Below are positions 10,376-63,975 of a stretch of 64,000 bases of DNA, in pieces. The notes under the pieces are model-generated. The model ran no database searches. It saw nothing but the letters and a program-made list of their open reading frames with translations, and was not told the DNA's origin. This stretch comes from Bryobacterales bacterium (GTDB lineage: Bacteria; Acidobacteriota; Terriglobia; Bryobacterales; UBA6623): positions 1,024,001 to 1,088,000 of the forward strand of contig OY729427.2 in NCBI GenBank assembly GCA_963422375.2. Direction: 5' to 3'. Within the stretch, counting starts at the first letter, position 1. Each line of letters begins with the position of its first letter. Position numbers and translations under genes: made by a program.

Positions 10376-10381
10376 ATTGCT

Positions 10382-39974: not shown

Positions 39975-40849
39975 GGAGTCGTCCTAAGGTCTGGACAGGA
40001 AGCGCTTCTGCGGGGTGTGGGCTAGGAGGACGCTGGGCGCGACCTAAATTGAACATAGCAGAATCGGCGGGCACGCGACAACTCCCGGCACCCAAGAGCA
40101 CACGTCTTCGGCCCGCTCCCCGCAGAGCCGCCAGCCGAAGCAACGGTCCAGCGCTCGGAGTCTCCATGCGCGAGGAGACCACCAGCGAACCCACCCTCGC
40201 GGCCACGGCGCCTAAGCCCAACCGGCCGAGTCAGAATTGATGACCCTCCCGCCGGACCGAAGACTCGATCATGTCGCATCGAAGAGCGCACGTTCCTCCG
40301 AGAATACCCTCCACGTCGAAATACCAGAGATCCGAGTACAAACTCGCCTGCCCACGCCAAGGCACCGGACGGCTGCGGCATAGGTGGCGAAATCGACAAT
40401 GCCGGCTAGGTCCGGACGGGCTAGCGCGGGCGACCAACAGCAACAGATTAGGGCCCTAGAGCCGAGCTTGACCCGCGGGGACCGCCACCCACAGTGTAGT
40501 GCAGGCTCCGTCGCCCCGTGCTTCAGCGCCTATTCTCATTGCGTGGCGTGGGGCGGTCCGGGCACCCGCATGCGCGTTGCTGGGTATACCCCTGCCTCGT
40601 CGCAAGAAGCTCCCGAAGACACGAGCGGTGAGAGTCGGCATTGAAGACTGTCCGGCCGCAGCAGTCGAACGAACCCGTCACCGGACGGCACCTTAGCCAC
40701 CGCACCCAAGCACTCGGGAGCGACAGGTCGTGCGGCAGGAGCCGTTGGATCATGCGAAGGCGGGTGTCGCCCAACACTCACTTCGCTCTAGAATCGCTGC
40801 GAATTTCAAGCGGCACGCGCAGACAGCGACGCGAGACCTTAGGCTGAGA

Positions 40850-41788: not shown

Positions 41789-41795
41789 GGTGAAA

Positions 41796-44023: not shown

Positions 44024-44898
44024 GGCACGGACGCTTCAACACATCATTATACAACATGCGAAGGTAGGTGCGACTGGATCGCTACCTGTCTCCAACGAGG
44101 CGGTCGATTCCCGCGGCAGTCGGGGCTCGGGCGTCCGCACCCTGAAAGATCGTCGGCGCGCAGCATGCGTTCAGACAGGCCTTGAAGAGGGAAAGGCGAG
44201 GCTAGCGCTGAGGATCGAGCGCCGCTCGAGATGCTGGCGCTTCAGGGAAATGTCATTGACAGGGGGCGAGCCTTGGTTGCAGACCTCCAGCTTGCCGCGG
44301 CCCTCGGCGCCACCGGCCCCCTTCCGGCGCTCCCGCTCCAACTCCCCACTCAGCCTTCACCGCGACTTGAGGAGCCGCTGCTTGACCCGCTCGTACACCC
44401 GCCGCCAAGGATGTCCAGCATTCAGGGCGACCGCCGTCGGGTCTATCTCCCGCTCGCGCAGCCTGACGCAGGCAGACGGAGGTCGCAGGGCTCGCCCGCG
44501 CCTGCATCCACGGTCGGGCGAGGCTACTCGGCTGAATCCCGGCCACGCGCCAAGCCCGACCGTGCGTGCACGGCGGCGCAGATCACTCCCGAGTCGTTGG
44601 GGCCCGGCCGCGCCGTCCCCGTTGGGCACGCATGGGCCTCGCGCCTGTTGTCAACCCAGCAATTCCACGGCCATTCCCAGTCCGGCCCACGCTAGAGCCG
44701 CGCAAGAATGCACCATGCTGCCTACGACGTCTCCCTGTTGCAGGGGGCTGTCTGCAGAATGCGGCGCGTCTCGGCGACAGTTGCTCCTGACAGATGTGCT
44801 GCCGCTGCCGCGGCTGACCGGTGTACGGCCTGCGGTGCGAAGCGTGGCCTGGGGCTCGGCGATTCTGCCAGTCGCGCGGCACCGTCGGCACTTCGGCC

Positions 44899-46536
44899 CT
44901 ACGTTCGGCTTCGGGTGCCGAGCAGGTCCCTAGCAGCCTGTCGCGCCTCCCCTAGCGTGGCGACCTTCCGGTTCCCGGGCACCCCCCGCAGCACGTCGAA
45001 CTCACGGATGGTAGCGGCACCCGAGCCGTGAAGTCCCTTGATAACGAAGTCGGTATCGGATGCGGTCGCGACCTCCAGAAGCCGCTCGATCACCATCGCG
45101 GCGCTTTCGTCGATATAGGTGGTGTCGGTGAAGTCGAAGATCAGAACCTCGTGATCTCGGATTTCCGGCCCGACCACGTTCACCAGCTTGTTCGACGAGG
45201 CGACAGTGGCGACAGTGAGGTCGCCACTGAGCGCCACCAAGCCCACGCGCCGCGCAATGGGGCTCCCGGCTGCCATGTCCTCGTCACAGTCGAAGAGAGT
45301 CTCATCCCGCATAGGCATGAAGACGACCCTGTCGAGCTCAAGCTGCTCCAGTCGCCGCGCATGCACCATTCCCCCTGCAATCAAACCGATCGCCGCCGCG
45401 GTTATCGGGTCTACGAATACCGTGAGGCCAAGCGTCGTCAGAAGGACGAGCAGGCTCTCGCCACTGATCCGGTGGAGCCGGAAGAGCAGACGCCAGTCAA
45501 TGATGTCCCAGCCCGCCTTTATGGTTACGCCGGCAAGCGCCGCAATCGGTATCGGCTCGGCAAGGCGGCCAAGTCCCGGTACCAGCGCCAGCAGGGTCAG
45601 CGCACATATCACTCCCGACCACGGCGATGATCCCCCGGAGCGGATATTGGTCACCGTGCCTAGCGACGCCCCGGAACCGGGAAGCGCCCCTAACAGCCCG
45701 GCTATCGTGTTGCCGATACCTTGGCCGACGAGCTCGCGACCAGGGTCGTGACGCTTGCCCGTCAGCGAATCGGTCGCCAGCGCAACCAGGAGGGTATCCA
45801 CCGCACCGAGCAGCGCGAGCATCAACGCCGGCTCCAGGGCATCTAGCAGGACTCCGGTAATGGGGACTGCCAGTCGGATGCTCGGCGATTCGGTCGGCAA
45901 TTCGCCAATGACCGGCGCACTCGTCAACCACAGCACACCCATCAGAGTGCCGACTACGAGCGCTACGAGCGGCCCGGGAGCGAACCGCGCAAGGCGGTGC
46001 GGCCAGAGGAAACCGATCGCCAGAGTGACGGCGGCGATGGCCAGGGCGCTGAGACGGATGTTGGCGAGCGCATCCGGGAGCGCCCACATCGTGCCGATGA
46101 GGCCGCCCGGATGAAGGGGCGCGCCGAGAAACGGGGGAAGCTGAACCAGAATGATGATGGCACCGAAGCCGGACATAAGCCCGGACACGATCACGCGCGG
46201 CGTGTAGGCTGCGAAACGGCCGACCCTCGCGAGGCCTAGAATCACCTGGATCAAGCCGGCGAGAACAACTGCCGTCAAGGCATCGGCGACATTGTGCGCG
46301 TAGCTGGTGACGACGGCCCACATCGCTACGGTCATCGCCGCCGTGGGACCGGATATCTGGGAGCGCGTGCCGCCGAACACAGCCGCGCCGAAGCCGAGCG
46401 CGACGGCACCATGGAGTCCCGCGACCGCTCCCATGCCCGACGCGATGCCGAAGCTGAGCGCCAACGGCAGCATCACTGCCGCGGAGGCGATCCCTCCTAG
46501 GAAGTCGCCACGGATCGTCAGGCGGTCAAGCTTCAT
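44899..46536 (-). CDS. SulP/SLC26 anion transporter with STAS domain (BicA-like)
   Basis: RGDFLGG...LPLALSFGIASG, QISGPT, ELVGQGIGN and STAS IFDF...IDESAA motifs. Confidence 0.88.
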   Translation of the reverse strand: MKLDRLTIRGDFLGGIASAAVMLPLALSFGIASGMGAVAGLHGAVALGFGAAVFGGTRSQISGPTAAMTVAMWAVVTSYAHNVADALTAVVLAGLIQVILGLARVGRFAAYTPRVIVSGLMSGFGAIIILVQLPPFLGAPLHPGGLIGTMWALPDALANIRLSALAIAAVTLAIGFLWPHRLARFAPGPLVALVVGTLMGVLWLTSAPVIGELPTESPSIRLAVPITGVLLDALEPALMLALLGAVDTLLVALATDSLTGKRHDPGRELVGQGIGNTIAGLLGALPGSGASLGTVTNIRSGGSSPWSGVICALTLLALVPGLGRLAEPIPIAALAGVTIKAGWDIIDWRLLFRLHRISGESLLVLLTTLGLTVFVDPITAAAIGLIAGGMVHARRLEQLELDRVVFMPMRDETLFDCDEDMAAGSPIARRVGLVALSGDLTVATVASSNKLVNVVGPEIRDHEVLIFDFTDTTYIDESAAMVIERLLEVATASDTDFVIKGLHGSGAATIREFDVLRGVPGNRKVATLGEARQAARDLLGTRSRT

Positions 46537-46921
46537 GGCGGACCCACTTGCGGTCTCTGTCGTCGGGATGGCCGGACTGTCTCGAGGAATGGACGCCTAG
46601 TACCGCGACGCACAGGTCCCGATGTCGTTGACAGCAGCGTAGTCCAAGAGCTCGCCGAGTCGCCTGCGGGAGGGCAAGCCGAGGGACTTGGGCAGGATCT
46701 CCGGCACGGAGTCAAGCGATTGGTGCGCACCCCTCCGCCTTGTCAAGGCCAAACGAATGCTCCGCCTCCCTGCTGATCTCAGGACGACCAGACTTCGCGC
46801 ATGGTGCGCCAAGAGCTGCGCACTGCCGCGAATCCCGCTGGAAGACTTGCCTTCCGCAAGGCGCTCGCCCGCCGTTGGCTGCCAGACTTGCCGGCACGGA
46901 GTGCCGGAATCAAGCCCGCTC

Positions 46922-48421
46922 TCAGGGAACTCCCGCTGCGCTCGCCAGAGCCGCTTCCGCACCGGACACGATTCCGGCAACGGCGACGTCAAGCACTTCA
47001 AGAATCGGACCCGGGTACACACCCGCCGCGATCACGATCGCGACCAGCGGCGCAAGCGTCAGGACCTCGCGCGGCCCGAGATCGGGCAGCGACTCCACCA
47101 TGCGAGTCGGCACGCGACCCAATGCCACCCGTTGCAGCATCCAAAGCATGTAACTGGCCGAGAGCACGATTCCGCCCATCGCCAGCAGGACCTTGAGCAT
47201 GCCGCCGTAAGAGGTCCCCGCCAGCACTAGGAACTCGCCGACGAAGTTCGCCGTGCCCGGCAGGCCAAAGGCGGCCACCGAGAAGATCGAGAGGAACACG
47301 ACGAACCTAGGCATTGACTTGTGCAGGCCGCCGTAGTCGCCGATCATGCGCTTGTGGGTCCTTTCGTACAACAGGCCGATCGCCAGGAACAGCGCTCCTG
47401 TCGTCAGTCCGTGGCTGAACATCTGCACGACGGCACCCTGGACACCCTCGCTGTTGAACGCGAAGATGCCGAGCGTGACGAACCCCATATGCGAGACCGA
47501 GGAATAGGCGATCAGCTTCTTGATGTCGGATTGCGCCAAGGCCAGGCACCCGCCGTACAGAATGGCTGCGACGGACAGCCACAGAATGTAGGGCGCGTAC
47601 GTCGCGGCGGCCTCGGGCAGCGCGGGCACGCAAATCCGAATCATCCCGTATCCGCCCATTTTCAGCAGTACGCCCGCAAGGATGACGCTGCCCGCCGTCG
47701 GTGCCTCGGAATGGGCGTCGGGCAGCCAAAGGTGGAACGGCACCATCGGGAGCTTGATGGCGAATCCCAGGAAGAGCAGTCCGAAGATCGCGAGCTGTGC
47801 TTCCGTTCCGATGTCGCTCTCTACGATCGCCTGCAGGTCGAAGGTCTGCCCGCACTGCAAGTACAGCCCCAGAATCCCCGCCAGCAGCAGCAGGCTGCCC
47901 GCCAAGCTGTACAGCACGAACTTGATCCCGGCTACAACCCTATTCGGTCCGCCCCAGAGGACGATCATGAAGTACATGGGAATCATCGTGACTTCCCAGA
48001 GCATGAAGAACAGGAACAGGTCCATCGCCGTGAAGACTACGATCATGGCCCCCTCGACTAGGAGAACCAAGCTCAGAAAGGCCTTAACCTTGCTCTCGAT
48101 CGATGTCCAGGAAACGAGAACGCAGAGCGGCGCGAGCAGCGCGGTCAGGAGCACGAGCACGATGCTGATGCCATCCACGCCGACCGCGTATTCGACGTTG
48201 AAGGACGGCATCCAAGCGACGCGCTCCACGAATTGCATGCCGCCCTGGGCCGGATCGAAACCAGCCCATAGAGACAGCGAGAGACCGAGAGCGCCGACCG
48301 TGGTCGCCAGCGCGACCCAGCGGGCCCACGCGTCGCTTCGGACAAGCAGCAGGATCGCGATTCCGAGAAACGGAATCGCAACCAGCGAACTGATCATGTG
48401 GTCTGCTAGGATCGACGTCAA
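46922..48421 (-). CDS. NuoM-like antiporter-type membrane subunit (second copy, part of the Dab/Mrp cluster)
   Basis: GVDGIS, LWEVTMIPMY, HLWLPDAHSEAPT, LLKMGGYG and NFVGEF motifs. Confidence 0.88.
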   Translation of the reverse strand: MTSILADHMISSLVAIPFLGIAILLLVRSDAWARWVALATTVGALGLSLSLWAGFDPAQGGMQFVERVAWMPSFNVEYAVGVDGISIVLVLLTALLAPLCVLVSWTSIESKVKAFLSLVLLVEGAMIVVFTAMDLFLFFMLWEVTMIPMYFMIVLWGGPNRVVAGIKFVLYSLAGSLLLLAGILGLYLQCGQTFDLQAIVESDIGTEAQLAIFGLLFLGFAIKLPMVPFHLWLPDAHSEAPTAGSVILAGVLLKMGGYGMIRICVPALPEAAATYAPYILWLSVAAILYGGCLALAQSDIKKLIAYSSVSHMGFVTLGIFAFNSEGVQGAVVQMFSHGLTTGALFLAIGLLYERTHKRMIGDYGGLHKSMPRFVVFLSIFSVAAFGLPGTANFVGEFLVLAGTSYGGMLKVLLAMGGIVLSASYMLWMLQRVALGRVPTRMVESLPDLGPREVLTLAPLVAIVIAAGVYPGPILEVLDVAVAGIVSGAEAALASAAGVP

Positions 48422-48449
48422 ATCTAGCCCTCTCCTAAACCGAATGCCT

Positions 48450-50405
48450 CTACCCTGCTAGGAAGTAGCCCCAGCCAATGGCAGCAGCCATAATGCAGAC
48501 GATTATGGCGAGGTGATGGCGGAGAGTGCGCGGCCCGGCCCGCTCCAGCGCGTTCCCCGTGCCTTCAGCCGCCCGGTCAAAGCCTCGCAGTGCACTGTCC
48601 GTAGCGGGCTGGTCCAAGCCGCTCCACAGCCAGCCAGCTCCTCGCACCGTCGCCTTCGCCGCCCCGTGCGCGGTGCCTTCGCCGATTCCTTCCACCCTCA
48701 GCCACAACCATCGAGAGAGCCGCAGCACGGGGTTCACGGCCAAGGCCTCGTGCAGCTCGTCGAAGTAGAGCTTGTTCAGGAGAAGCACGTAGGCGGTCCT
48801 CGCCCACGGCCTAGCAGCCAGCGGCACTGCCGGCGGTTTCGCATGCCGATACCAAGCCCAGCCCCAGCCCGCCACCGCCGTGGCTAGGGCCGCCGCCAGC
48901 GAGAGAGGGAGATCCGTGGGCCGAGGCTCCCCCGCCGCCGACCCCGTGACAGGCGCCAGGAACCCGCTGAAGGCCGACCAAGCGCCGAGCAGAAGAGCCC
49001 CGATAGCGGCGCCCGCCAAGGCCAGCCCCGGCAGGTGGGCGATCGATAGCAGGCGTGGCCGGGCGCTGACGCCCTCCCCCACCGATTGTCCGAACAGGGA
49101 CACGATGCCCCGGAAGACGTAGGCGGCAGTGAAGAAGACTGTCGCCAAGGCCACGCACCAGAAGGCCGCCCGGGCCGAAGGGAATGGCTGAGCAACCCAG
49201 ATCCGCTCGTACGGGCCGGCGAACAGCACCACCGCCGCGACGCAGGCCAGCGGGAGCGCGCCCATGGCCAGGCCGACGACGCGGGCCGGCCGGCCCGCCG
49301 GCCCGCCGTGCCCATGACCGCTCGCGGCATTCAGGGCGTCCCCGGTCGACAGGAACAAGAACCCCTTCAGGAACCCGTGCGCCAAGAGGTGGAAGATGGC
49401 GGCGCCGAACGCGCCGACCCCGCAGGTGAAGATCATGAAGCCGATCTGGCTCACCGTCGAATACGCGAGCAGCTTCTTGATGTCGCTCTGGGTCAGCGAA
49501 ACCAGCGCGCCGTACAGCGCCGTGACCGCCCCGACAGCCGCGATCGCCCCCATCGCGGGAGGCGACAGGATGACTAGCGGGGCGAGCCGCACGAGCAGGA
49601 ACGGACCGGCATTGACCATCGTCGCGGCGTGAATCAGGGCGGAGACCGGTGTCGGAGCCTCCATGGCGTGCGGGAGCCACACGTGCATGGGCACCTGCGC
49701 CGACTTCCCCATGGCCCCGCTCAGCAGGCACAGCGCGATCAGCGTGTTCCTCTCGATTTCCAGTCCGAGGAACGCCAGGGTGCGACCGTCCATCGCCGCG
49801 GCCCGCTCCAAGAGCTCCGGTATGTCGAGCGTGCCGTAGGTCGCGAAGGCCAGCACCACGCCGAATCCCAAGCCGACGTCAGCCACCGCGTTGACGAGAA
49901 AGGCCTTGGTTGCCGCCCGCCCGGCCGCCGGCCGCGCCGCCCAGTGCGAAATGAGCAGGTAGGAGCAGATTCCCATGACCTCCCAGCACATGTACGTCAC
50001 CAGGAGGTTGTCGCTCATGACCAGCATCGCCATTGCGGCGGTGAACAGCGCCATGACCGCGAAGAAGCGGCGATACCGCGGGTCTCCCGTCATGTAGCGC
50101 GACGAGTAGACGTGGACGATGAAGCTGACGCCCGTGACCAGCGGGAGCAGCAGGACCGCGAGCTGGTCGATATACAGGCCGGCGTCGACGACCAAGCCGC
50201 CCGCCTCGATCAGGCGATACAGGGGGATCTCGATCAGACCGTCTCGCGCGACGCCGGCGAACGCTGCCAGCGAAAGAGCGAACGCGGTGCCTACGGAGAA
50301 TATCCCGACGCGGTGGATCCCGGCCTCGCCCAAGCGGCGACCGCCCAGCGCCAGGAAGAGGAACGCCGCCAAGGGCAGCGCAGGAATCAGAGCGTAGGCA
50401 GACAT
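48450..50405 (-). CDS. NuoL/MrpA/DabB-like antiporter-type membrane subunit
   Basis: WEVMGICSYLLI, GKSAQVPMHVWLP.AMEAPTPVSALIHAATMVNAG and HGFLK motifs; divergent after this point. Confidence 0.85.
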   Translation of the reverse strand: MSAYALIPALPLAAFLFLALGGRRLGEAGIHRVGIFSVGTAFALSLAAFAGVARDGLIEIPLYRLIEAGGLVVDAGLYIDQLAVLLLPLVTGVSFIVHVYSSRYMTGDPRYRRFFAVMALFTAAMAMLVMSDNLLVTYMCWEVMGICSYLLISHWAARPAAGRAATKAFLVNAVADVGLGFGVVLAFATYGTLDIPELLERAAAMDGRTLAFLGLEIERNTLIALCLLSGAMGKSAQVPMHVWLPHAMEAPTPVSALIHAATMVNAGPFLLVRLAPLVILSPPAMGAIAAVGAVTALYGALVSLTQSDIKKLLAYSTVSQIGFMIFTCGVGAFGAAIFHLLAHGFLKGFLFLSTGDALNAASGHGHGGPAGRPARVVGLAMGALPLACVAAVVLFAGPYERIWVAQPFPSARAAFWCVALATVFFTAAYVFRGIVSLFGQSVGEGVSARPRLLSIAHLPGLALAGAAIGALLLGAWSAFSGFLAPVTGSAAGEPRPTDLPLSLAAALATAVAGWGWAWYRHAKPPAVPLAARPWARTAYVLLLNKLYFDELHEALAVNPVLRLSRWLWLRVEGIGEGTAHGAAKATVRGAGWLWSGLDQPATDSALRGFDRAAEGTGNALERAGPRTLRHHLAIIVCIMAAAIGWGYFLAG

Positions 50406-50452
50406 CTCCTATTCCTCGCTCCTTGCCGCTAGCGCCATGTCGCTCCCCCGTG

Positions 50453-51925
50453 TCACAGGCCCAGCCCGCCCGTCGCCTCGGTCAGCAGCCCGACGATCGG
50501 ATCGTTGAAGATTCCGAGCAGCAGCCCGGCGGCGGCCAGCGCGGCCATGCTGGTCCGCAACTGCCACGGCGTAGCGGCCTCGCCGGCTCCGGCTTCGCGA
50601 ACGCCCTTCCGGAACAGGCTCTCGAACACGAGCGAGAAATACCGGAGAGTGACCAACGACGCCACAACGACCGCCGCCGCCGAGACGTAGTCACCGGACT
50701 CCAGCGTGGCCAGCAGGATACGCATCTTGGCGAAGAATCCGCCTGTCGGGGGCAGTCCCACCGCTCCGAGCGCAGCCACCACGAACGTAGCGACGGCCCA
50801 AGGGTTCCGCACGGGGGAGCCCGCGACATCGTCGAGCGAGCGGACGCCGTAGCGGTAGGCCAGGAATCCGGCCAGGACGAATAGCGTGCATTGCAGCACG
50901 GCGTCGTTGAGCAGGTAAAAGAGGGCCCCGGTCAGGCCGGTCTGGCTGCCCTGCCCCGCCGCGACCAGCACCAGCCCCGCATGCGAGATCCCGCCGAATG
51001 CGAACATGCGCGTCAGGTTCCTCTGCTTCATGGCGAGGCAGGCCGCCCCCACGGACGACAGGATGCCCAGAACGGAGAGAATCCCTAACACGTACGTCGA
51101 TCCGACCGCCTGGCCCGGCTGCAGGACCCAGAAAAGGATGCGCAGCCAGACCAGCATCACCACCTTGGTCACCAGCCCGCCCAGGAGCGGAAGCGCAGTC
51201 CGCGGCGCGTCGGCGTAGGCGTCCGGGAGCCAGCCGTGCATCGGCATGACCGCCATCTTGACCGCGAGCCCGATGAAGATGAAGATCAGGCCGCCCATGA
51301 CTGCCTTGGACGCAAGCGGATCGGGCAGCAGCTGGGCCAGGTCTCGTATGTTGAGCGTCCCCGTCGCCGCGTAGAAATAGGCCACGCCGAGCAGGTAGAG
51401 CGCGGTTCCGGCGCTTCCCATGATCAGATAGCGGAACGCCGACACCAAGGCCCGCCCGCCCGGCACCGCGACGAGCGCGTAGGCCGCCAGCGAGACCACT
51501 TCGAGGAACACGAAAATGTTGAAGACGTCGCCCGCGTACACCGCGCCGGCAAGGCCTGCCATCAGCAGCAGCACCATCGCGTGGTAGGGAACCGTGCGGC
51601 CGGCAATCAAGCGGCCGCTGACCGGGCCCGCGTACAGCAGGCTGATCGCGCTCACCGCACTCACGGCCGCGGCCATGACCGCGGCCGGAGCGTCCACGAT
51701 CCATTCGACTCCGAGCGGCGCCGCCCAGCCGCTCCAAGGGTAGTACCTGGCGCCGGCACCCACGCACACGCTCCACAGGCTCCACGCGGCCAGCAGCGCC
51801 ATGCATGTCGCTGCCAGGAGAGCGAGGGGCCGGCACGCGCTCTTGCTGCGATGGCCCACCAGCGGCATGCAGATTGCCGCCGAAAGGGGCGCGAGGAGCA
51901 CAAGTGCTGGAAGGTGGTCTGTCAT
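50453..51925 (-). CDS. MrpD-like proton-conducting membrane subunit
   Basis: GWAAPLGVE, GDVFNIFVFLEV, GTLNIRDL, HGWLPDAY and GLPPTGGFFAK motifs. Confidence 0.85.
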   Translation of the reverse strand: MTDHLPALVLLAPLSAAICMPLVGHRSKSACRPLALLAATCMALLAAWSLWSVCVGAGARYYPWSGWAAPLGVEWIVDAPAAVMAAAVSAVSAISLLYAGPVSGRLIAGRTVPYHAMVLLLMAGLAGAVYAGDVFNIFVFLEVVSLAAYALVAVPGGRALVSAFRYLIMGSAGTALYLLGVAYFYAATGTLNIRDLAQLLPDPLASKAVMGGLIFIFIGLAVKMAVMPMHGWLPDAYADAPRTALPLLGGLVTKVVMLVWLRILFWVLQPGQAVGSTYVLGILSVLGILSSVGAACLAMKQRNLTRMFAFGGISHAGLVLVAAGQGSQTGLTGALFYLLNDAVLQCTLFVLAGFLAYRYGVRSLDDVAGSPVRNPWAVATFVVAALGAVGLPPTGGFFAKMRILLATLESGDYVSAAAVVVASLVTLRYFSLVFESLFRKGVREAGAGEAATPWQLRTSMAALAAAGLLLGIFNDPIVGLLTEATGGLGL

Positions 51926-52299
51926 CCGATCTTCGCGAGGATCTCGTCCTCGTCCAAGCTCCCGAACTCGCGGTAGATCCGGCTGACCAAGCCGAGCGAG
52001 ACACCGAGCGTGGCAATCTGCACCACGATCGCCGTTAGGGTCAGCACTTGCGGAAGGGGATTGACGTACTCAGCCGCCGCGACGGCGCCCGTCACTTCCC
52101 GGATCACAGCGACGGTCGCGCCTTCCTTCGCGCCCAGCGTGACGAAGAAGAAGATGACGCTCGTCTGGACGAGATAGAGCCCGATTAGCTTCTTCACCAA
52201 GTTGTGATGGGTAATGGTGATGTAGAGGCCCCACACCAACAGGAGCACGGCCACGACGACGTTCGGCCGCTCGACGGCGAGTTCAAGCATCTCAACCAT
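51922..52299 (-). CDS. MrpC / MnhC subunit
   Basis: NLVKKLIGL and NPLPQVLTLTAIVV motifs. Confidence 0.85.
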   Translation of the reverse strand: MVEMLELAVERPNVVVAVLLLVWGLYITITHHNLVKKLIGLYLVQTSVIFFFVTLGAKEGATVAVIREVTGAVAAAEYVNPLPQVLTLTAIVVQIATLGVSLGLVSRIYREFGSLDEDEILAKIG

Positions 52300-52744
52300 C
52301 GGAACCACCCCGGGCGCCGCTTCGCGAGAGACTGAACACGATCGACACCGCCGCCACCGCGACATCGGCGGCGACGCCGACCTGGGTGAGCAGGATTCCC
52401 AGGTATCGCCGGTAGGGGGGCGGGACGCCGGGGACGGGTGCGTCCGAGTAATTCAGGAACTCCCCGCCGCCGATCATGCAAGCTCCCCCGATTGCAACGT
52501 ACAGAATCAGCCCTGTGCCGTCACCCGCGAGGACGCTGCTGGCCCGCTGCCCGGAGACACCCTCCCTGCCGAACACGATCAGCCCCACAACGATGCTGGC
52601 AGCCACCATCACCCCGGCCACGAACCCCCCGCCGGGGCCGTACTGCCCGAAGAAAAGCACGTACAGCGCGAAGATTTGCACCAGCGGGATCAGCATCGAG
52701 CAGGTGCGCGTCACGATGACGCTTCCGAACGGGGAGCGGATCAT
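52292..52744 (-). CDS. MrpB / MnhB-domain subunit
   Basis: FALYVLFFGQYGPGGGFVAG motif. Confidence 0.85.
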   Translation of the reverse strand: MIRSPFGSVIVTRTCSMLIPLVQIFALYVLFFGQYGPGGGFVAGVMVAASIVVGLIVFGREGVSGQRASSVLAGDGTGLILYVAIGGACMIGGGEFLNYSDAPVPGVPPPYRRYLGILLTQVGVAADVAVAAVSIVFSLSRSGARGGSDG

Positions 52745-53271
52745 TCGGCGTCCCTCCGGAGAAGCAGCCAGCACGCGACGCCGGACGTGAAGACGACCAC
52801 CGTCTCGATGAGCGTGTCGATGCTGCGGTAGTCCATGAGAACCGCGGCAACCGCGTTGGGGCTCTTGGTCTCGGCGAGGCTGTTCTCCAGATACTCGGGC
52901 GAGACGTGGGCGTTGGCGGGTGAGAGGGGGTCACCGAAGCTCGGAATGTCACGCGCCGCGTACAGGAGCAAGAAGGCCAGCAGAGGCAGGGCCACCAGCG
53001 CGACCAGCGGGGGGCGCGGCCGCTTGATGCGCGTGTCCTCCGGCGCGGTCCGGAAGAGCGTCAGCAGGAACAACACAGTCGCCAGCCCGGCTCCGACCAC
53101 CGCTTCGACGAAGGCCACGTCCGCAGAGCCGAGCCACGCCCAAACCAGCGCCATGAAGAAGCTGTACGAGCCGAGCAGCAGCACGGCGCTGATCAGATCC
53201 TTGACGAGGATCGCCGCTCCGGCCGTCAGCACCAGCAGCGCGAGCAGCGGCAGCTCGAACGAGATATTCAC
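52741..53271 (-). CDS. DUF4040 / MrpA-C-terminal-like subunit
   Basis: ADVAFVEAVVGAG and PNAVAAVLMDYRSIDTLIE motifs. Confidence 0.8.
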   Translation of the reverse strand: MNISFELPLLALLVLTAGAAILVKDLISAVLLLGSYSFFMALVWAWLGSADVAFVEAVVGAGLATVLFLLTLFRTAPEDTRIKRPRPPLVALVALPLLAFLLLYAARDIPSFGDPLSPANAHVSPEYLENSLAETKSPNAVAAVLMDYRSIDTLIETVVVFTSGVACWLLLRRDAE

Positions 53272-53567
53272 CGGCAGTCCTCCCCCACCGGCCTCTGGCC
53301 GGAACGCAGCGCCGCACGCACGCTCGCGTGAGAGATGACGGGATTGATCAAGTACAGCAGGGCCATGACGACCAAGATGCGCAGGGTGTTAGTGGTGAAG
53401 CCGTGATACACCGCCAAGCCCCCGAGGAGGAAGAATGCCCCCAAGGAGTCTGTCAAGGCGACCGCATGCGACCGCGTGTAGACATCGGGCAGGCGCCACA
53501 TGCCGACTGCGGCCACCACGAGGAAGAAGAGGCCCGTTGCGATCAGCAGGGCCGCCAGCGCGTACAC
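53268..53567 (-). CDS. MrpG / MnhG subunit
   Basis: GMWRLPDVYTRSHA...DSLG and NPVISHA motifs. Confidence 0.85.
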   Translation of the reverse strand: MYALAALLIATGLFFLVVAAVGMWRLPDVYTRSHAVALTDSLGAFFLLGGLAVYHGFTTNTLRILVVMALLYLINPVISHASVRAALRSGQRPVGEDCR

Positions 53568-53568
53568 C

Positions 53569-53832
53569 TTAGGTATTCCTCCCCCGCTCCAGATACTTGG
53601 CGATGGCCAGGGCGCCCACCAGGTTGAGCAGCGCGTAACCCGTCGAAATGTCGACGAACATGTCCACCCTCTCGTAGACCGTGCCGATCACGACCAGCAG
53701 CACGATCGCCTTCGTGGAAATCCCGTTCAGGCCGAGCACGCGGTCGAAAAGCGTGGGCCCGCGCACGACCCGGTACAGGTACATCCCGATCAGCACCGCG
53801 ATCAGGTTCATGACGAGCAGCAGGAGGCTCAT
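53569..53832 (-). CDS. MrpF / MnhF subunit
   Basis: YRVVRGPTLFDRVL and DIS..YALLN motifs; start at 53832 overlaps the mrpE-like stop. Confidence 0.85.
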   Translation of the reverse strand: MSLLLLVMNLIAVLIGMYLYRVVRGPTLFDRVLGLNGISTKAIVLLVVIGTVYERVDMFVDISTGYALLNLVGALAIAKYLERGRNT

Positions 53833-54323
53833 GCGCCCTCCTCCGACGGGCCGAATACCTGGCCGACCTTGGCTTCCAGCCGCCCGGTCTTGACATCCCG
53901 CGCCGACTCCGAGTCGATCGCGTGAACAATCAGCTCGTCGTTGGCCGCCTCCACGGTCAGGGTGCCGGGAGTCAGCGTGATCGAGTTGCCGATCAGCATC
54001 ATGGCGCTGTCGTGGCCGAGGTCCGTCCGGTGGCGAAAGAGCTGCGGCTTGATCGGAAGGCGGGGATGCAGAATCAGGTACGAAACGTGGAGGCCGCTCA
54101 GCAGGATGCGACCGAATAACCAAGGGAAGTACCACAGCGCCTTCCACCAACGCACGGCATGCGCTCTCGGCCCGAACTGGTAGGCGTTCACCGAGGAGAC
54201 TGCGAGCGACGCCAGCAGGCCAACCGCCATGTGCAGGGGGTTGAAGCTCTCCGACAGGAGCAGCCAAATGACGAACAGGACGGCTGTCCAGAATGCGTGG
54301 CGTCTGGAGAATCGCATGCGCAT
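53829..54323 (-). CDS. MrpE / MnhE subunit
   Basis: ILHPRLPIKP, NSITLTPGTLTV and LIVHAI motifs. Confidence 0.88.
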   Translation of the reverse strand: MRMRFSRRHAFWTAVLFVIWLLLSESFNPLHMAVGLLASLAVSSVNAYQFGPRAHAVRWWKALWYFPWLFGRILLSGLHVSYLILHPRLPIKPQLFRHRTDLGHDSAMMLIGNSITLTPGTLTVEAANDELIVHAIDSESARDVKTGRLEAKVGQVFGPSEEGA

Positions 54324-54327
54324 CGGC

Positions 54328-57087
54328 CTACTCGGGGCGAACGGGCGCTTCGCGGCTCCACGCGCCGTCCGCACCGTAGCGAAAGAACTCGTTCCGCGCG
54401 GCGTCCAGCGCCACTAGGTGGACCCACTGATTGTGGAACAGCGCCTGCAGGATCGCGTGCTTCCCGATGATCCCGGAAATCCGCTCCCTAGGCGCCTCGA
54501 TGAGCGCCAGAAGCCTCATCGGCTCGTGATAGCGGCGCGCGCCGTCGGCCACGCCCTGCAGAGGCAGGCCGCCCTGCAGGTCCCCCTGGCTGCCTAGCAT
54601 CACACCGACACCGCCCGCGACGTTATGGATGACCTTGCTCCCGCTCCCGTACACCCAAGGATCCACGGAAGAGAAATAGTATTCCATGTTGATCCATTCG
54701 CCCACGATCAGCGGGGCCGTCATGATGCGCTCCAAGATTCCGCCGTCGCCGTCCGACGCCGGATCGTAGGAGTGGAGGAACACCCTGGACTCGAGGTCCA
54801 AGGCCTTGGTGAGCGCCCTGCGGCCGATCAGGAACGCGGCGTTGCTCGAGAGGCCCCATTCCGGGCGCGGGTTGGCCCAGTCGACGCTGCGACCGACGGC
54901 GTGCGCGGCCGCCCGGACGGGCGCAGCCCCGACCGGGGCTCCCGGCAGGCGCCCGAGACGCTCTCCGGCCTGGCAGGCGCCGGCGGCGATCAGATCGCGG
55001 TCCAAGCTGCGCAGGTCCTCGGCGTGGGTTGGCGGGACGTCGACGAGGTCGTAGAAATGCACGCGATCCGTCGTGGTGTCGTGCTTGGCCGCCACGAACC
55101 AAGTGTCGTCCGGAATGGCGAGGCCGCTCTCCGCCAGTGCGCCGCGCACGGCCGGCTCGTTCGCCATGGCGGCGAAGGCCCGGGCGTTCGGATCCCCGTG
55201 CGCCCCGCCGCAGGCGCCGCAGTTGTAGGCCGCGGCGTACGGATTGTTGTCCGACAGCGCACCGTGGCCGCACACGACCACCAGCCTGCCCAGGTTCTCG
55301 GCGAGCCCGATCATGCGGAGTCCGTTGCCGACGAAGGCCGCCCGCTCGGACAGCGTGAAGCCCCGGTCCGACTCGGCCTCGCTCTCGTCCCGCTCGACCG
55401 GCAGGCGGGTCGCGACCTCGCTGCGGAAGCGCCGCCGGATCCAAGCGCGCAGACCCGCGTACGGCCGCCACGCCAAGGTCTTCCCGGCGAGGCCGACGCT
55501 GAACAGCAGGCCGACCGTGTCCACGAGCATGTAGCCCGCGAGCGGGTTCTGCTTCAGGTCATGGAGGAGATCGTCGCCCAGCCGCCGCCAGCGCGTGCCG
55601 GAGGCGTATCGCTGCAACGGCGCAGCCTCGCCCTCGCGCGGCCGCTCGTCGACCTCGCGGGCCGGCTTCAGCAGGACCGGGCACAGCGCTAGACGGTCGT
55701 GGCTGTCGAATGCCTGGTGGCTGATCGGCACGCCGAAGAACCCGGCGTAGCCGAAGGTCTCGTAGGCCCCCTGCGCCTCGACGTGGCGCCGGAAGGGCTC
55801 GGAGCGGGCGTCGATGCAGAAGATCAGCTGGGCGCGCGGCCTCGAGCCGACCGCGGCCTCTTCCCGCGGGCGGGCGGCCAGACGGCCCAGGATGCGCTCG
55901 GCGTAGGACGCCTCGTACGCTTCCAGCCACAGCCGCCCGTGCGAGTCTGCAGGGAAGGCATCCAGCCAGCCCAGCAGCGCACGGGCTCCGTCCGGGGAGA
56001 GTGCGGCGACCTCCCGCGCCGTCAGCCCGAGGCACGCGGCAAGCAGGTACAGCCGACCCGCTTCCGAGGCGCCGCCGCCGCCGGTCCGACCGCTCGCGCA
56101 CGCGGCGATCTCGGGCAGGGTCCCGGGCACGCCCAGCTCGCGACGGCTCGCCGCCTCGACCAGCTCCGCCTCGTAGAAGAGCCGCACGGCGAGGTATTCC
56201 GTCAAGTCGACGGGATACTCCCTCTGGCCGGGGTAGGCGGGATTCTCGCTGCGCCAGCGCACGAACCCGGCCCAGCCAGGCAGTTGCGCCAGCGTGCGGG
56301 ACAGGTAGTCGGCCCGGCGCTCCTCCGGGATTTCCAGCCGCTCCAAGGCGGCGGCAACCGCCTCCTCGGGCGTCTCCGGAAGCGCGCGGATCTTGGCGCG
56401 CAGGGCGCGGATACCGAGCAACCGCCCGCCAAGGTCGCGCTGGCCCAGACGCTTCCAGCTGCCGTAGAAACCCTCGCCCCGCGAGGGCATGCCCCATCCG
56501 GCGATGCCCTCGTCCAGGAAGGCCGACACCCACTTGATCACCTGCTGGTCAATCGCTTCGACGACCGACGCCCCGCACAGCTCGTCGAGCCAATCGCTTA
56601 GCGTCCGCCAGCGCGGCAGTTCCGCCTCGCCGGGGCGGTCGCCGTCCGGCGCGCCGCAGGCCTCGGACGCGGCGCCTAGGAGATCCAGCTGGCCCCCCGC
56701 CCTAGCCTGCCAGCGGACGACCTCCGGATCGGGGCTCTCCACGCCTTCGACGAGGTGAGCCCAGAGCACCTCGGACGGCTCAATCGCGCGGCCCCCGGCC
56801 TGCACCGGGGCGGAGGCGAAAGACGGGCCCGAGCGGTCGAGCGCCTCGCGCAGATGGCGGTCGAGAATCCTGCCCGACCGGCGCAGGTCGCGATACTCGC
56901 CGTTGGAGAGGTAGCCCGCCCCGCCGGTCACGCGGCCCGCTTCCCGCACCGCGCGGTCGAAGGGCAGATCCTCGTAGAAGCGGACGGGGCTGCGATACGC
57001 AAACGTTCTCAAGGGCCAGATCGGCGAGACCGGACGGGCCGCCTCCGCGATCTGCAGCCGCAGGGTGTCGCGATACGCAGGATCCAT
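54328..57087 (-). CDS. dabA: DUF2309 / DabA inorganic carbon transporter subunit (beta-carbonic-anhydrase-like)
   Basis: PIWPLRTF, LPGWAG, FCIDARSEPFRR, TFGYAGFFG, GHG..DNNP...CGACGG, HDTTTD, DWA.PRPEWGL, FLHSYD and HEPMRL motifs. Confidence 0.92.
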   Translation of the reverse strand: MDPAYRDTLRLQIAEAARPVSPIWPLRTFAYRSPVRFYEDLPFDRAVREAGRVTGGAGYLSNGEYRDLRRSGRILDRHLREALDRSGPSFASAPVQAGGRAIEPSEVLWAHLVEGVESPDPEVVRWQARAGGQLDLLGAASEACGAPDGDRPGEAELPRWRTLSDWLDELCGASVVEAIDQQVIKWVSAFLDEGIAGWGMPSRGEGFYGSWKRLGQRDLGGRLLGIRALRAKIRALPETPEEAVAAALERLEIPEERRADYLSRTLAQLPGWAGFVRWRSENPAYPGQREYPVDLTEYLAVRLFYEAELVEAASRRELGVPGTLPEIAACASGRTGGGGASEAGRLYLLAACLGLTAREVAALSPDGARALLGWLDAFPADSHGRLWLEAYEASYAERILGRLAARPREEAAVGSRPRAQLIFCIDARSEPFRRHVEAQGAYETFGYAGFFGVPISHQAFDSHDRLALCPVLLKPAREVDERPREGEAAPLQRYASGTRWRRLGDDLLHDLKQNPLAGYMLVDTVGLLFSVGLAGKTLAWRPYAGLRAWIRRRFRSEVATRLPVERDESEAESDRGFTLSERAAFVGNGLRMIGLAENLGRLVVVCGHGALSDNNPYAAAYNCGACGGAHGDPNARAFAAMANEPAVRGALAESGLAIPDDTWFVAAKHDTTTDRVHFYDLVDVPPTHAEDLRSLDRDLIAAGACQAGERLGRLPGAPVGAAPVRAAAHAVGRSVDWANPRPEWGLSSNAAFLIGRRALTKALDLESRVFLHSYDPASDGDGGILERIMTAPLIVGEWINMEYYFSSVDPWVYGSGSKVIHNVAGGVGVMLGSQGDLQGGLPLQGVADGARRYHEPMRLLALIEAPRERISGIIGKHAILQALFHNQWVHLVALDAARNEFFRYGADGAWSREAPVRPE

Positions 57088-57105
57088 GGTCTTCGATTCC
57101 GAGCC

Positions 57106-58686
57106 CTACCCGCGCCTGCGGACGCGGGCCGCTGCCGGATCCTCCGACAGCGGCCTGTGGCTGTCGAGGCCTCGAATCTCGAGGCTGGCGCCAGCCTCCT
57201 CGAATTCCATCCTAGTCTCCGCCAAGCGGGCCATCACCGTGTGGTCGACGAGCGCGGTGCCGGACAGGTCGACCGTGACGGGCGTCTCGCCCTTGAAGCG
57301 CTCGATCCGCCTCTTGAGAGCGATCCATGTGCTGAAGACCGCCGCGCCGCTGACCGAGACCGTGGCGCCGCGCTGATCCCTGGCGATCCCGGCGCGCAGG
57401 CGCAAGAGCGATCCCACGGGGGCGCCGTTCACGACGTGGACCAGCAGCTTGACGACAATCCCGATCGCGATGCCCATCAGCAGGTCCGTGGCGAGCACCC
57501 CGACGATGGTCGAGACGAACACCACCAGCTGCTCGCGACCGACGCGATACATGTGGACGAATTCCCGCGGCGACGCGAGGCGGTAGCCCGTGTACACCAG
57601 CATCGCGCCGAGCGCGGCAAGCGGGATGTGATTGATGAGGGCCGGCGCGAGCGCCACGAAGGCCAGCAGGAACAGGCCATGGAACATGTTCGCGAAGCGC
57701 GTCTTCGCGCCGTTGTCGATGTTCGCCTTGCTGCGGACGATCTCCGAGATCATCGGCAGTCCGCCGACGAAGGCGGCCAGGGTATTGCCCACGCCGATCG
57801 CGAGCAGGTCGCGATCGTGATTGGTCTTCCTGCGGTGGGGGTCGATCTCGTCGACCGCCTTGGCGCTGAGGAGGGACTCCAAGCTGCCGATAAGGGCGAA
57901 GAGCGTGATGTACTTCGCGCCGGTCGCGGTCAGCACTCCCGAGAAGTCGGGGAACGTCAGGGCGCCAAACATGTTCAGCGGCACGGACACGAGGAACTCC
58001 GGGCCCAGACCGTAGTGCAGGCCGAGCGGCACCGTGATCAGCAGGACCACCAGCGGGGCCGGAATCGACCGCAGCCCGGGAACCTTCAGCAGGGGGTAGC
58101 AAAACATCACGGCCAGGCTCGCGAGGCCGATCACCGCCACTTGCGGATGCAGGTCCGTCACGTAGCTGGGAATCCTGGCCAGCAGCTCGAGCGGCGTGCC
58201 CTCCGACCCGAGACCCAGCGTCACCGGCAGCTGCTTGGCGAAGATGATCACGCCGATGGAGGCTAGGAGGCCATGCACCGCCGCGCTCGGGAAGAACTCG
58301 CCCAAGATCCCGGCGCGGAAGACTCCGAATAAGATCTGGATCGCGCCTGCGACCACTCCCACGCCCAGCGCCAGCCGGTAGGCCTCGATATCGGCCGCGG
58401 GATCCCGGCCCGAGGTGAACCCGAAGTCCGTCACGCAGCCGATCGCAATGACGATGAGCCCGGCGGCGGGCCCTTTGATGGTCAATTCCGAATTGCTCAG
58501 GAACGCGGAAAGCACGCCGCCGATAATCGCCGTGAAGATGCCGGCGATGGCCGGATAGCCGCAGGCTAGGGAGATGCCCAAGCACAGCGGCAGGGCGATC
58601 AGGAAGACGAGAAAGCCGGACAGCAGATCCGGCATCCAGTAGCGGCGAAGCCCGGCAGCGTTGCCGATCGGAAAATCCTCTTGCAT
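57106..58686 (-). CDS. SulP/SLC26 anion transporter
   Basis: DLLSGFLVFLIALPLCLGIS, TIKGPAAGL, LESLLS and GGLPMISEIVRS motifs; short STAS-like tail. Confidence 0.9.
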   Translation of the reverse strand: MQEDFPIGNAAGLRRYWMPDLLSGFLVFLIALPLCLGISLACGYPAIAGIFTAIIGGVLSAFLSNSELTIKGPAAGLIVIAIGCVTDFGFTSGRDPAADIEAYRLALGVGVVAGAIQILFGVFRAGILGEFFPSAAVHGLLASIGVIIFAKQLPVTLGLGSEGTPLELLARIPSYVTDLHPQVAVIGLASLAVMFCYPLLKVPGLRSIPAPLVVLLITVPLGLHYGLGPEFLVSVPLNMFGALTFPDFSGVLTATGAKYITLFALIGSLESLLSAKAVDEIDPHRRKTNHDRDLLAIGVGNTLAAFVGGLPMISEIVRSKANIDNGAKTRFANMFHGLFLLAFVALAPALINHIPLAALGAMLVYTGYRLASPREFVHMYRVGREQLVVFVSTIVGVLATDLLMGIAIGIVVKLLVHVVNGAPVGSLLRLRAGIARDQRGATVSVSGAAVFSTWIALKRRIERFKGETPVTVDLSGTALVDHTVMARLAETRMEFEEAGASLEIRGLDSHRPLSEDPAAARVRRRG

Positions 58687-61826: not shown

Positions 61827-61863
61827 GGTGTGGTGCGCTCCGGACGGTCCCGTCCGCTCTTCC

Positions 61864-63975
<2,112 letters not shown>

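Follow-up and report, generated by a model that had tools for sequence, protein, structure and literature searches.

Organisation of the Gene Cluster

The 64,000-nt stretch of DNA analysed here (the window) comes from a Bryobacterales bacterium (GCA_963422375.2, contig OY729427.2) and carries, at positions 44899-58686, a cluster in which dabA, the gene for the catalytic subunit of DAB inorganic carbon pumps, is joined to Mrp-type and complex I-type membrane subunit genes. Genes were called from a listing of open reading frames (ORFs) together with Pfam and NCBIfam family scans. The cluster comprises twelve genes, every one on the minus strand, in the order sulP, dabA, mrpE, mrpF, mrpG, an MbhD/MbhE gene (DUF4040), mrpB, mrpC, mrpD, a NuoL-type gene, a NuoM-type gene and, after a 385-nt gap, a second sulP. 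The NuoL-type and NuoM-type proteins are named NuoL2 and NuoM2, and the nine genes from mrpE to NuoM2 are referred to as the arm. A preliminary description of this DNA, made without database searches, had given the same order, coordinates and strand, with which the ORFs and both family scans agree. The family searches that it proposed returned matches for DabA, PF00361, Mrp B, C, E, F and G, and SulP. The genes, in the direction of reading and with lengths in amino acids (aa), are as follows.

57106-58686, minus: sulP, upstream SulP/SLC26-family carrier; PF00916, 190 bits, plus STAS domain
54328-57087, minus: dabA, 919 aa; PF10070, 863 bits, end to end
53829-54374, minus: mrpE, MnhE family; PF01899, 112 bits; the ATG at 54323 is the likely true start
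53569-53832, minus: mrpF, 87 aa; PF04066, 52.9 bits
53268-53567, minus: mrpG, 99 aa; PF03334, 75 bits; TIGR01300, 70.6 bits (cut-off 63.1)
52741-53271, minus: MbhD/MbhE-type gene (DUF4040), 176 aa; PF13244 (MbhD) and PF20501 (MbhE); NF009159, 163 bits (cut-off 141)
52292-52744, minus: mrpB, 150 aa from the ATG at 52744; PF04039, 66.5 bits
51922-52365, minus: mrpC, NuoK-like; PF00420, 67 bits; start at 52365 or about 52299
50453-51925, minus: mrpD, Mbh/Mbs 'H'-type antiporter-like subunit; PF00361
48450-50405, minus: NuoL2, NuoL-type, 651 aa; PF00662 and PF00361; TIGR01974, 459 bits (cut-off 407.5)
46922-48421, minus: NuoM2, NuoM-type, 499 aa; PF00361; TIGR01972, 580 bits (cut-off 263.8)
44899-46536, minus: second sulP, BicA-like; 294 bits against 6ki1_A; NCBIfam BicA model, 402 bits, under the cut-off of 880

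The coordinates also bear out the close packing first described, in which the genes from dabA to mrpD overlap or lie within a few nucleotides of each other. A gap of 18 nt separates sulP from dabA. The dabA and mrpE genes overlap by 47 nt, or are 4 nt apart if mrpE starts at the ATG at 54323; relatives of mrpE begin to align at residue 18-30 of the called protein. Overlaps of 4 nt occur at mrpE/F, mrpG/MbhDE, MbhDE/mrpB and mrpC/D, mrpF and mrpG are 1 nt apart, and mrpB overlaps mrpC, the start of which is uncertain. The two larger overlaps (dabA/mrpE and mrpB/C) therefore hinge on uncertain mrpE and mrpC starts. Further along, 47 nt separate mrpD from NuoL2, and 28 nt separate NuoL2 from NuoM2.

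Conservation and Linkage of dabA to the Arm

Related loci were collected from both ends of the block. Starting from DabA, 35 loci were retrieved when one genome was searched for each species. By title, 33 belong to Bryobacterales, Terriglobia or Acidobacteria (Acidobacteriota), one to Nitrospirales and one to Pseudohongiella. By tblastn with the proteins of the window, the block sulP-dabA-mrpEFG-MbhDE-mrpBCD-nuoL-nuoM is present in all 35, and thus under titles from three phyla; one locus (L017) ends at a contig edge, and three (L008, L013 and L031) have split single-gene matches. Starting from the arm, metagenome contigs were scanned with an MbhD/E protein alignment, which yielded at least 539 relatives, and the best 80 were kept. 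Among these 80, dabA stands before mrpE in 38/38 loci with more than 2 kb of upstream sequence, and in 19/19 of those with more than 4.6 kb. Because it is kept in every one of the 35 genome loci and the 38 arm-first metagenome loci, the arrangement is far beyond chance, and the gene-neighbourhood survey suggested earlier shows that the synteny is not unique to this genome.

A third sample consisted of 301 evenly drawn Nitrospirota genomes, with an MbhD/E protein of at least 57% identity taken as the marker of the arm. Some form of DabA is present in 107 of these genomes, and the type linked to Mrp genes in 20, of which 18 give a single match at E <= 1e-232 and two (G663 and G582) were counted from split or partial matches. 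The arm was detected in 18 of the 301, all of them within the set of 20 that has the Mrp-linked DabA type, and in 17 of the 18 dabA and the arm lie within 11 kb of each other. Tight linkage of dabA to the nine-gene arm, as originally proposed, is thus seen in all three samples (35/35, 38/38 and 18/18). No arm lacking the Mrp-linked DabA was found among the 38 arm-first metagenome loci or the 18 arm-bearing Nitrospirota genomes.

The two remaining Nitrospirota genomes (G639 and G582) have the Mrp-linked DabA type without the arm marker, and in both of them dabA is broken into two or three frames (L054 and L056). This gives a hint that dabA decays where the arm is lost, seen in two of two arm-less genomes, although the gene is also split once in two arm-bearing loci (L031 and L053), and the genomes are assembled from metagenomes.

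Loci differ in what accompanies the block. LysR-type regulator genes lie directly upstream of the arm or of dabA/sulP in L070 (4596-5495), L109 (2896-3795) and L124 (3159-4067), and an ArsR-type regulator gene lies upstream in L035 (7532-7888); no regulator gene occupies the position directly upstream of the cluster in the window. An MpsC-family gene (PF10057) is found between sulP and dabA, on the opposite strand, in L034 (9468-9839) and L113 (2088-2471). MpsC was considered as a conserved part of the system and rejected, as it was seen in these two loci but not found in the genome of the window. One metagenome contig (L143, Ga0299906_10000335) holds, besides a DabA-arm cluster, a divergent Mrp-type cluster that stands alone and is arranged back to back with it. 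A few contigs (L102, L119 and L125) have marine or sediment in their names.

The Catalytic Subunit and Its Likely Docking Partner

The DabA of the window is the sole PF10070 protein of its genome. Residues C424 and D426 (in FCIDARSE), H608 (GHG) and C623/C626 (CGACGG) are invariant among 18 aligned DabA of this type, and the motifs align with their counterparts in the solved DabA2, 9rd0_A (E 4e-116), so the metal ligands of beta-carbonic anhydrase type noted at the outset are indeed present. The protein thus has the features of the cytoplasmic PF10070 subunit of a DAB pump, with its Cys-Asp-His-Cys zinc site, and by sequence it is a beta-carbonic-anhydrase-like catalytic subunit for which a CO2-hydrating role is predicted. 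It also keeps the hydrophobic elbow that enters DabB in solved structures. In the DabA tree, the clade linked to the Mrp-type arm (labelled T3) receives a Shimodaira-Hasegawa-like approximate likelihood ratio test (SH-aLRT) value of 99. Protein clusters matching this DabA at E <= 1e-100 number 571, and Planctomycetota-labelled relatives are among the matches. In most DabA of the Mrp-linked clade, ~70-100 extra residues are inserted (alignment columns about 170-250), two conserved Cys among them; the subclade of the window's DabA (919-927 aa) lacks this insertion.

DAB pumps encode a PF00361 subunit in the same operon as DabA. Here, NuoL2 is encoded seven genes downstream of dabA, and this is kept in 35/35 loci. 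In the solved pumps, an elbow or finger of DabA wedges into DabB (10.64898/2026.05.01.722082, 10.64898/2026.03.13.711513). The structure prediction for DabA that had been recommended was made with NuoL2, using NuoL2 residues 1-466 and DabA residues 386-919, and it passes: the complex model scores 0.70 (runs 0.73, 0.70 and 0.69), against 0.00 for the best of three controls. Of 157 solved complexes, 116 attain the mark applied, as do 2 of 215 mismatched pairs. At least 83% of contacts are shared between runs, and the predicted local distance difference test (pLDDT) value of the partner is at least 78. In the model, two stretches of DabA, the hydrophobic elbow at 510-538 and residues 613-618 next to the active-site Cys, face NuoL2 93-109 and 339-359. 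The prediction makes NuoL2 the likely docking partner of DabA and the equivalent of DabB.

By likeness to the solved DAB complexes, DabA would therefore dock on the NuoL-like subunit, which in complex I forms the distal end of the arm. The preliminary description had DabA taking the place of the redox module of Mbh or complex I. This is probably not the case, since the docking site of that module is a NuoH/MbhM-type subunit, which scans of the cluster's genes did not turn up.

Subunits of the Arm

Compared with solved structures, NuoL2 scores about 275 bits against NuoL/NdhF1, 145 against NdhF3 (6tjv_F), 144 against MrpA and 126 against DabB2. Beyond alignment position 470 it has a further 182 residues, and its relatives have 183-241, as against 200-201 in complex I NuoL, 97-116 in DabB and 50-150 in the short partners of Mrp-less operons. 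In complex I this C-terminal extension is the lateral helix that clamps NuoM and NuoN, and its length in NuoL2 fits a clamp across two further antiporter-like subunits. An AlphaFold2 model of NuoL2 (mean pLDDT 63.6) has a helical extension (533-622, then 626-650), which is consistent with a lateral helix. NuoL2 keeps E. coli NuoL positions E144, D178, K229, H254, H334, H338 and K342 (alignment numbering), residues with functional roles in NuoL. The K399/D400 pair of E. coli NuoL is replaced, and a conserved Glu sits one residue earlier. The DabB types compared have lost more of the NuoL channel features than NuoL2 has.

NuoM2 matches Paracoccus NuoM (8qby_M) over its full length with 421 bits and retains the conserved Glu, Lys and His motifs. 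MrpD has its best solved relatives in the archaeal MBS subunit 6u8y_H (198 bits) and then in MrpD 7qru_D (153 bits), and charged residues are retained in MrpD alignments at the positions of transmembrane helices (TM) 5, 7, 8 and 12. All six of the Mrp subunits B, C, D, E, F and G are encoded (PF04039, PF00420, PF00361, PF01899, PF04066 and PF03334), with mrpF, for example, 73-93% identical in relatives. The fused MrpA of Mrp antiporters is lacking: NuoL2 has no MbhD/E domain, and MbhD/E is a separate protein of 176 aa. That protein also matches positions about 600-790 of MrpA models and, judged from this match, is a free-standing equivalent of the MrpA C-terminal domain. NuoL2 would stand in for the N-terminal domain, of which the cluster has no other equivalent. 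The nine arm genes can accordingly be described, in terms of family membership, as an Mrp antiporter with a split MrpA, a NuoL as its N-domain and one extra NuoM. The family names of these subunits would suggest coupling to Na+/H+ exchange.

The SulP Carriers

The preliminary description had the cluster bracketed by two SulP carriers, an arrangement peculiar to this genome, since conservation extends to the upstream carrier only. The upstream sulP is present in 35/35 related genome loci. Within the 80 best metagenome relatives, 20 loci reach more than 2 kb beyond dabA on its upstream side; 11 of them include a SulP there, and one other has a SulP downstream only. The protein scores only 70 bits against BicA 6ki1_A, which marks it, by sequence comparison, as not a close BicA relative, and its substrate is probably an anion, for instance HCO3-. 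None of the 35 related loci (0/35) has a gene corresponding to the downstream BicA-like sulP, which rules out the latter as a part of the conserved unit; it is probably a transcription unit of its own, outside the conserved block. A second SulP also occurs downstream in metagenome loci L101 and L124.

Genomic Context

Eight PF00361 genes are present in the genome: NuoL, M and N of complex I, the three of the arm, and the MrpA and MrpD of a canonical Mrp operon that lies on another contig and has a fused MrpA of 785 aa. No stand-alone DabB is found among these eight. The gene content of the cluster is as it had been described, with the correction that respiratory genes adjoin it: the cluster starts 81 nt after nuoN of a complex I operon (window 58768-63975). 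The genes seen for this operon are nuoC, D, H, I, J, K, L, M and N, with nuoK, J, I, H, D and C upstream of the window (L151, G000:C1:1087000-1103000). There, nuoD is followed directly by nuoH, so that nuoE/F/G are outside their usual place; a NuoF-like gene is located on contig 2. Between sulP and NuoM2, Pfam scans detect neither a quinone module nor a NuoH/A/J heel. The possibility that the arm belongs to the adjacent complex I operon was rejected, as nuoL/M/N occur within 10 kb upstream in only 6 of 35 related loci, and the adjacency is a matter of local context.

Neither the RuBisCO large subunit nor an alpha- or beta-class carbonic anhydrase was found in the genome (completeness 96.4%; the gamma class was not searched for). 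Given these absences, the DabA-arm complex may be the main bicarbonate route of the cell.

Other DabA Layouts and the Origin of NuoL2

DabA occurs in several other genomic layouts. Among 401 Acidobacteriota genomes, 10 (the window's genome included) have a DabA above the cut-off. In eight of the nine others, dabA is followed by a short NuoL-like gene (433-521 aa) without the extension (L038-L045). Six of these eight loci have a NuoM-like gene, six have a SulP gene and none has Mrp small subunits; their DabA is 33-36% identical to that of the window. The ninth locus is dabB-dabA. Nitrospirota have a DAB1-like type, in which DabB is accompanied by a 358-aa protein that matches PF00361 weakly and by a DabA of ~1080 aa; the 358-aa protein and DabA are fused in some cases. 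One further Nitrospirota locus (L064, G664:C39:245000-264999) has the order nuoM-like, dabA (1095 aa), nuoL-like, nuoM-like, nuoM-like, and thus four PF00361 genes, with no Mrp small subunits detected.

The arm also has relatives without dabA. These Nitrospirota clusters share the mrpEFG-MbhDE-BCD order, their MbhD/E is 42-49% identical, and they have two further PF00361 genes without PF00662. Since these clusters, like the arm, close with two PF00361 genes beyond mrpD, the nine arm genes look like one Mrp-type unit.

The four DabA layouts correspond to four clades in the DabA tree, and the NuoL-like partners fall into the same four clades. The partner trees tentatively group NuoL2 with all DabA-partnered subunits, as the first branch among them, with an SH-aLRT of 94 when five complex I NuoL are included and of 93 with twelve complex I NuoL from three phyla under a mixture model. 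The top 120 sequences in a search for NuoL2 homologues all belong to its own family, with no outgroup.

Comparison with Known Systems

Two kinds of DAB pump have been solved. DAB1 of Thermocrinis albus, determined by cryo-electron microscopy, is DabA-DabB-DabC (10.64898/2026.05.01.722082), and DAB2 (MpsAB) of Halothiobacillus neapolitanus is DabA2-DabB2, PDB 9rd0 (10.64898/2026.03.13.711513). The contrast originally drawn with DAB pumps of a single NuoL-like subunit was overstated, because DAB1 also contains DabC, a third membrane subunit that superimposes on the NuoM helices beside NuoL (10.64898/2026.05.01.722082). As in DAB1 and DAB2, the catalytic subunit here belongs to the same family with all Zn ligands, its partner is NuoL-like with PF00662 and PF00361, and the DabA elbow lies inside that partner, in the present case by model. 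A subunit at the NuoM position, as DabC is, is shared with DAB1. The system differs from either pump in its ten genes (the pumps have two or three), in the distance of about 4 kb that separates dabA from a partner gene elsewhere adjacent to it, and in the addition of a full-length canonical NuoM, an MrpD and six Mrp small-subunit genes. NuoL2 also differs from the DabB types compared in keeping the TM5 Glu (which two of the three other partner types have lost), the TM8 motif LIHAAT and the long extension.

The combination of DabA with several membrane subunits is not in itself new, since DabA operons with SulP, NuoL and NuoM have been known since 2017 (PMC5700660). In the 'Clade C' operons of YbcC/COG3002 (DUF2309), dabA is followed by a NuoL homologue, SulP and NuoM genes are found close by, and operons with several membrane subunits were suggested to move several ions (Klimchuk et al. 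2017, PMC5700660). The Mrp-less acidobacterial operons (L038-L045) are like these in gene content, which does not imply the same clade. Unlike the cluster described here, the available text of PMC5700660 names no Mrp E, F, G, B or C, and the seven COGs of its legend include no Mnh/Mrp; the study predates the carbonic anhydrase assignment.

The arm, too, has a precedent. The 'group 3 Mrp' of Ca. Nitrospira alkalitolerans consists of mrpE, F, G, an mrpA fragment, B, C, D, a nuoL-like and a nuoM-like gene (Daebeler et al. 2020, PMC7784846, Table S3), which are the identical nine genes in the same order, and a BicA/SulP gene is nearby. That locus adjoins ompA/motB, nhaB and bicA, and exported Na+ was proposed to drive BicA (PMC7784846). 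NhaB and OmpA/MotB neighbours also occur in metagenome locus L113. DabA/DUF2309 was not found in the available main-text passages of PMC7784846 or in 12 of its 14 supplementary files. Both this locus and the present one depart from canonical Mrp in that MrpA is split into a complex I-type NuoL and a small MbhD/E, with an extra NuoM. A 2026 survey lists one DAC (DabA-type) cytoplasmic subunit without membrane companion in N. moscoviensis and N. tepida (PMC13147460), and we infer that this orphan is of the Mrp-linked DabA type.

Full-text searches returned no paper joining DabA/DUF2309 to Mrp subunits; Figure S8 and 2 of the 14 supplements of PMC7784846, together with bioRxiv supplements, lay outside the search. 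In the passages available, the DAB discovery preprint (10.1101/476713) and the two 2026 structure papers mention Mrp merely as a family name. DabA with several membrane subunits and the arm are each in print separately (PMC5700660, PMC7784846), and are not joined there. The enlargement of the known carbon pump is real, widespread and uncharacterised.

Further parallels exist with redox-driven complexes. Cyanobacterial NDH-1MS is a CO2-uptake complex of NdhF3-NdhD3-CupA-CupS that is driven by electron transfer. It resembles the system described here in placing a CO2-hydrating protein on a NuoL/NuoM-type pair at the end of a complex I-like arm. It differs in that the arm cluster has no quinone or NuoH module of its own, though it lies 81 nt downstream of the nuo operon. 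The order mrpE-F-G-MbhD/E-B-C-D matches the mbhA-H order. As to Mbh/Mbs (6cfw, 6u8y), the likeness includes MrpD, for which MBS subunit 6u8y_H is closest. Unlike these complexes, the cluster has no hydrogenase or sulfane-reductase module and no MbhM/NuoH-like anchor, and DabA is expected at the opposite, NuoL end. Whether CupA is related to DabA is not stated in the passages on CupA/B of 10.1101/476713.

A Proposed Complex and Its Alternatives

We give a little more than an even chance to the proposal that the ten genes from dabA to NuoM2 encode one membrane supercomplex coupling CO2 hydration to ion flow. Support comes from the NuoL-length extension of NuoL2, from the position of the mrp genes between dabA and NuoL2, and from the arm never having been found without this DabA. 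We infer a single ten-protein complex, and with it a subunit order, a direction of reaction and a coupling ion. The arm would run from NuoL2 through NuoM2 and MrpD to MrpC, the MbhD/E protein, MrpB, MrpG, MrpF and MrpE, with the cytoplasmic DabA seated on NuoL2, just as the solved DAB pumps have DabA on DabB. DabA would be gated by ions flowing along the arm, such that entering CO2 is hydrated one way to HCO3-. H+ would move via the three antiporter-like subunits, and an exchange for Na+ may take place at the end where the Mrp small subunits lie. SulP would be a frequently co-encoded, dispensable helper that moves HCO3- or another anion. In this heterotroph-looking genome, the HCO3- would be supplied for carboxylations, as MpsAB in Staphylococcus is said to do.

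Several observations weigh against a single supercomplex. The NuoL-NuoM pair is inverted in L003, and in G522 dabA is about 260 kb from the arm, which is preceded there by a LysR-type regulator gene. Insertions have been accepted at the dabA-mrpE junction in Nitrospirota: an HtrA/DegP-like protease gene (Trypsin_2 and PDZ) in L046, L053 and L055 (about 11300-13070), and in L051 a complete DAB1-like operon in the opposite orientation (6345-12409). DabA in general does not need Mrp genes, since eight Acidobacteriota have Mrp-less dabA/NuoL-like/NuoM-like operons. The passing docking model may reflect likeness to the solved DAB2 complex 9rd0, and NuoL2 was the only partner modelled with DabA. NuoL2 itself scores higher against complex I NuoL than against DabB2, it has not kept the TM12 lysine of NuoL, and its structure model is poor in the extension (pLDDT below 50 at residues 543-632). 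Lastly, the approximately unbiased (AU) test keeps a tree that joins NuoL2 to complex I NuoL (log-likelihood difference, delta lnL, 3.19; p-AU 0.252; 26 rows, without mixture model).

Some of these points would fit two machines encoded in one operon, namely a DAB1-like CO2-hydrating trimer of DabA-NuoL2-NuoM2 and a separate Mbh-type Na+/H+ module (MrpD/MrpC/MbhDE/MrpB/MrpEFG) that recycles Na+ for SulP or controls pH. We regard this division as rather unlikely, though deserving of serious attention. It would be in keeping with DAB1 being a trimer in which the third subunit overlays NuoM helices (10.64898/2026.05.01.722082), with the Mrp-less dabA/NuoL-like operons in 8/9 other acidobacterial DabA loci, six of which have a NuoM-like match, and with L003, where the NuoL-NuoM pair moves as a unit. 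A single H-type (MrpD-like) chain is listed for the solved Mbh and Mbs complexes, and the MrpD studied here has no closer solved relative. Mbh works with a single antiporter-like subunit. Yet in nearly all loci seven mrp genes separate dabA from its supposed partners, a trimer would have no need of the NuoL-length extension, and the cluster would be left without another equivalent of the MrpA N-domain. DabA-less clusters of the same order also have three antiporter-like genes, and the arm occurs without DabA in 0/38 arm-first loci (from the best 80 of at least 539 metagenome relatives) and in 0/18 Nitrospirota genomes.

It is improbable that the arm is a plain Mrp Na+/H+ antiporter, with NuoL2 and NuoM2 as extra MrpA/D-like subunits, and that DabA is a co-regulated carbonic anhydrase, soluble or loosely attached, beside Na+-dependent HCO3- uptake by SulP/BicA. 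The listing of the same nine-gene order as an Mrp antiporter in Ca. Nitrospira alkalitolerans (PMC7784846), the description of the DAC subunit of N. moscoviensis and N. tepida as an orphan without membrane companion (PMC13147460) and the 260-kb separation in G522 would all suit such an arrangement. On the other hand, DabA-type subunits without membrane subunits have, in the available text of PMC13147460, shown no carbonic anhydrase activity, and the DabA described here keeps a hydrophobic elbow that the model places in NuoL2. The genome already has a separate canonical Mrp operon, and this arm type was never found without the Mrp-linked DabA type in the same metagenome loci and Nitrospirota genomes. 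The fragmented dabA of the two arm-less Nitrospirota genomes (L054 and L056) is a weak hint in the same direction, tempered by the splits in arm-bearing L031 and L053. A purpose in ion or pH homeostasis instead of carbon gain appears very improbable. Here, CO2 hydration by DabA would yield cytoplasmic H+ and HCO3- for export by SulP, to the benefit of an Mrp-type system that keeps the internal pH steady where the surroundings are alkaline and salty, or the reaction would drive ion export. Mrp systems do serve alkaline and salt tolerance (PMC7784846), the YbcC reaction has been proposed to energise ion export (PMC5700660), no RuBisCO was found in the genome, and a few contig names are marine or sediment (L102, L119 and L125). 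Against this, the characterised DAB complexes accumulate inorganic carbon via the membrane potential and are uncoupler-sensitive (10.64898/2026.03.13.711513), nothing in the sequence points to a reversed direction, and the genome has other Mrp genes.

A bolder version of the single supercomplex can be entertained, which we hold to be unlikely as a whole. The ten-subunit form would be the least reduced DabA pump and a redox-free counterpart of NDH-1MS, in which a whole arm, with three proton channels and a Na+ module, drives one-way CO2 hydration, possibly on the marine Na+ gradient. From it the two- and three-subunit DAB pumps would have descended by loss of subunits, and DabC would be what is left of NuoM. 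This version is allowed by the trees and sequences: of the DabA partners, NuoL2 is the earliest branch in the trees, although the AU test also accepts it beside complex I NuoL, and it has retained more NuoL features than any other partner; DabC-like proteins keep a weak PF00361 match.

Implications for Carbon Uptake and Annotation

Among known energy-coupled systems for CO2 uptake, DAB pumps are the simplest, and the way in which they couple ion flow to carbonic anhydrase chemistry is an open question (10.64898/2026.05.01.722082, 10.64898/2026.03.13.711513). A natural full-arm version, if confirmed, would show whether the same catalytic head can run on several channels or on Na+, and would form an evolutionary bridge between DAB, Mrp and complex I. 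The type is common, with 571 DabA protein clusters and at least 539 metagenome MbhD/E stretches, and it occurs in Nitrospirales (relatives of nitrite oxidisers) and in metagenome-assembled Bryobacterales. Annotation also stands to be corrected: the arm is now labelled as an Mrp antiporter or 'NADH-quinone oxidoreductase subunit L/M', and DabA as DUF2309, hypothetical or 'orphan'.

Neighbouring Genes and Base Composition

A scan of 44500-47100 gave no promoters or terminators, and such a scan is uninformative at this G+C content. None of the sequencing runs listed as containing this DNA is registered as RNA. Contigs of 150-400 nt from four runs align, at no less than 99% identity, to portions of the cluster and of the nuo genes, but they were set aside and allow no conclusion on (co-)transcription, as the RNA origin of three of the four runs is guessed.

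Just downstream of the cluster, a 303-aa ORF without Pfam match (window 44022-44933, plus strand) shares 35 nt with the 3' end of the BicA-like sulP, which is encoded on the other strand. Next to it lie two adjacent genes of 371 aa each (window 41796-44023, minus strand), one with AAA_15/AAA_21 and DUF3696, and the other with GmrSD_N (DUF262-type), a pair that looks like a small defence island. The stretch that holds the AAA_15/GmrSD_N genes (40001-44000) has a low G+C content of 0.48-0.54, against about 0.66 around it. Low G+C (0.53-0.55) is also seen at window 22001-24000 and 30001-34000, which may be acquired DNA, and the rest of the window has values of 0.64-0.71.

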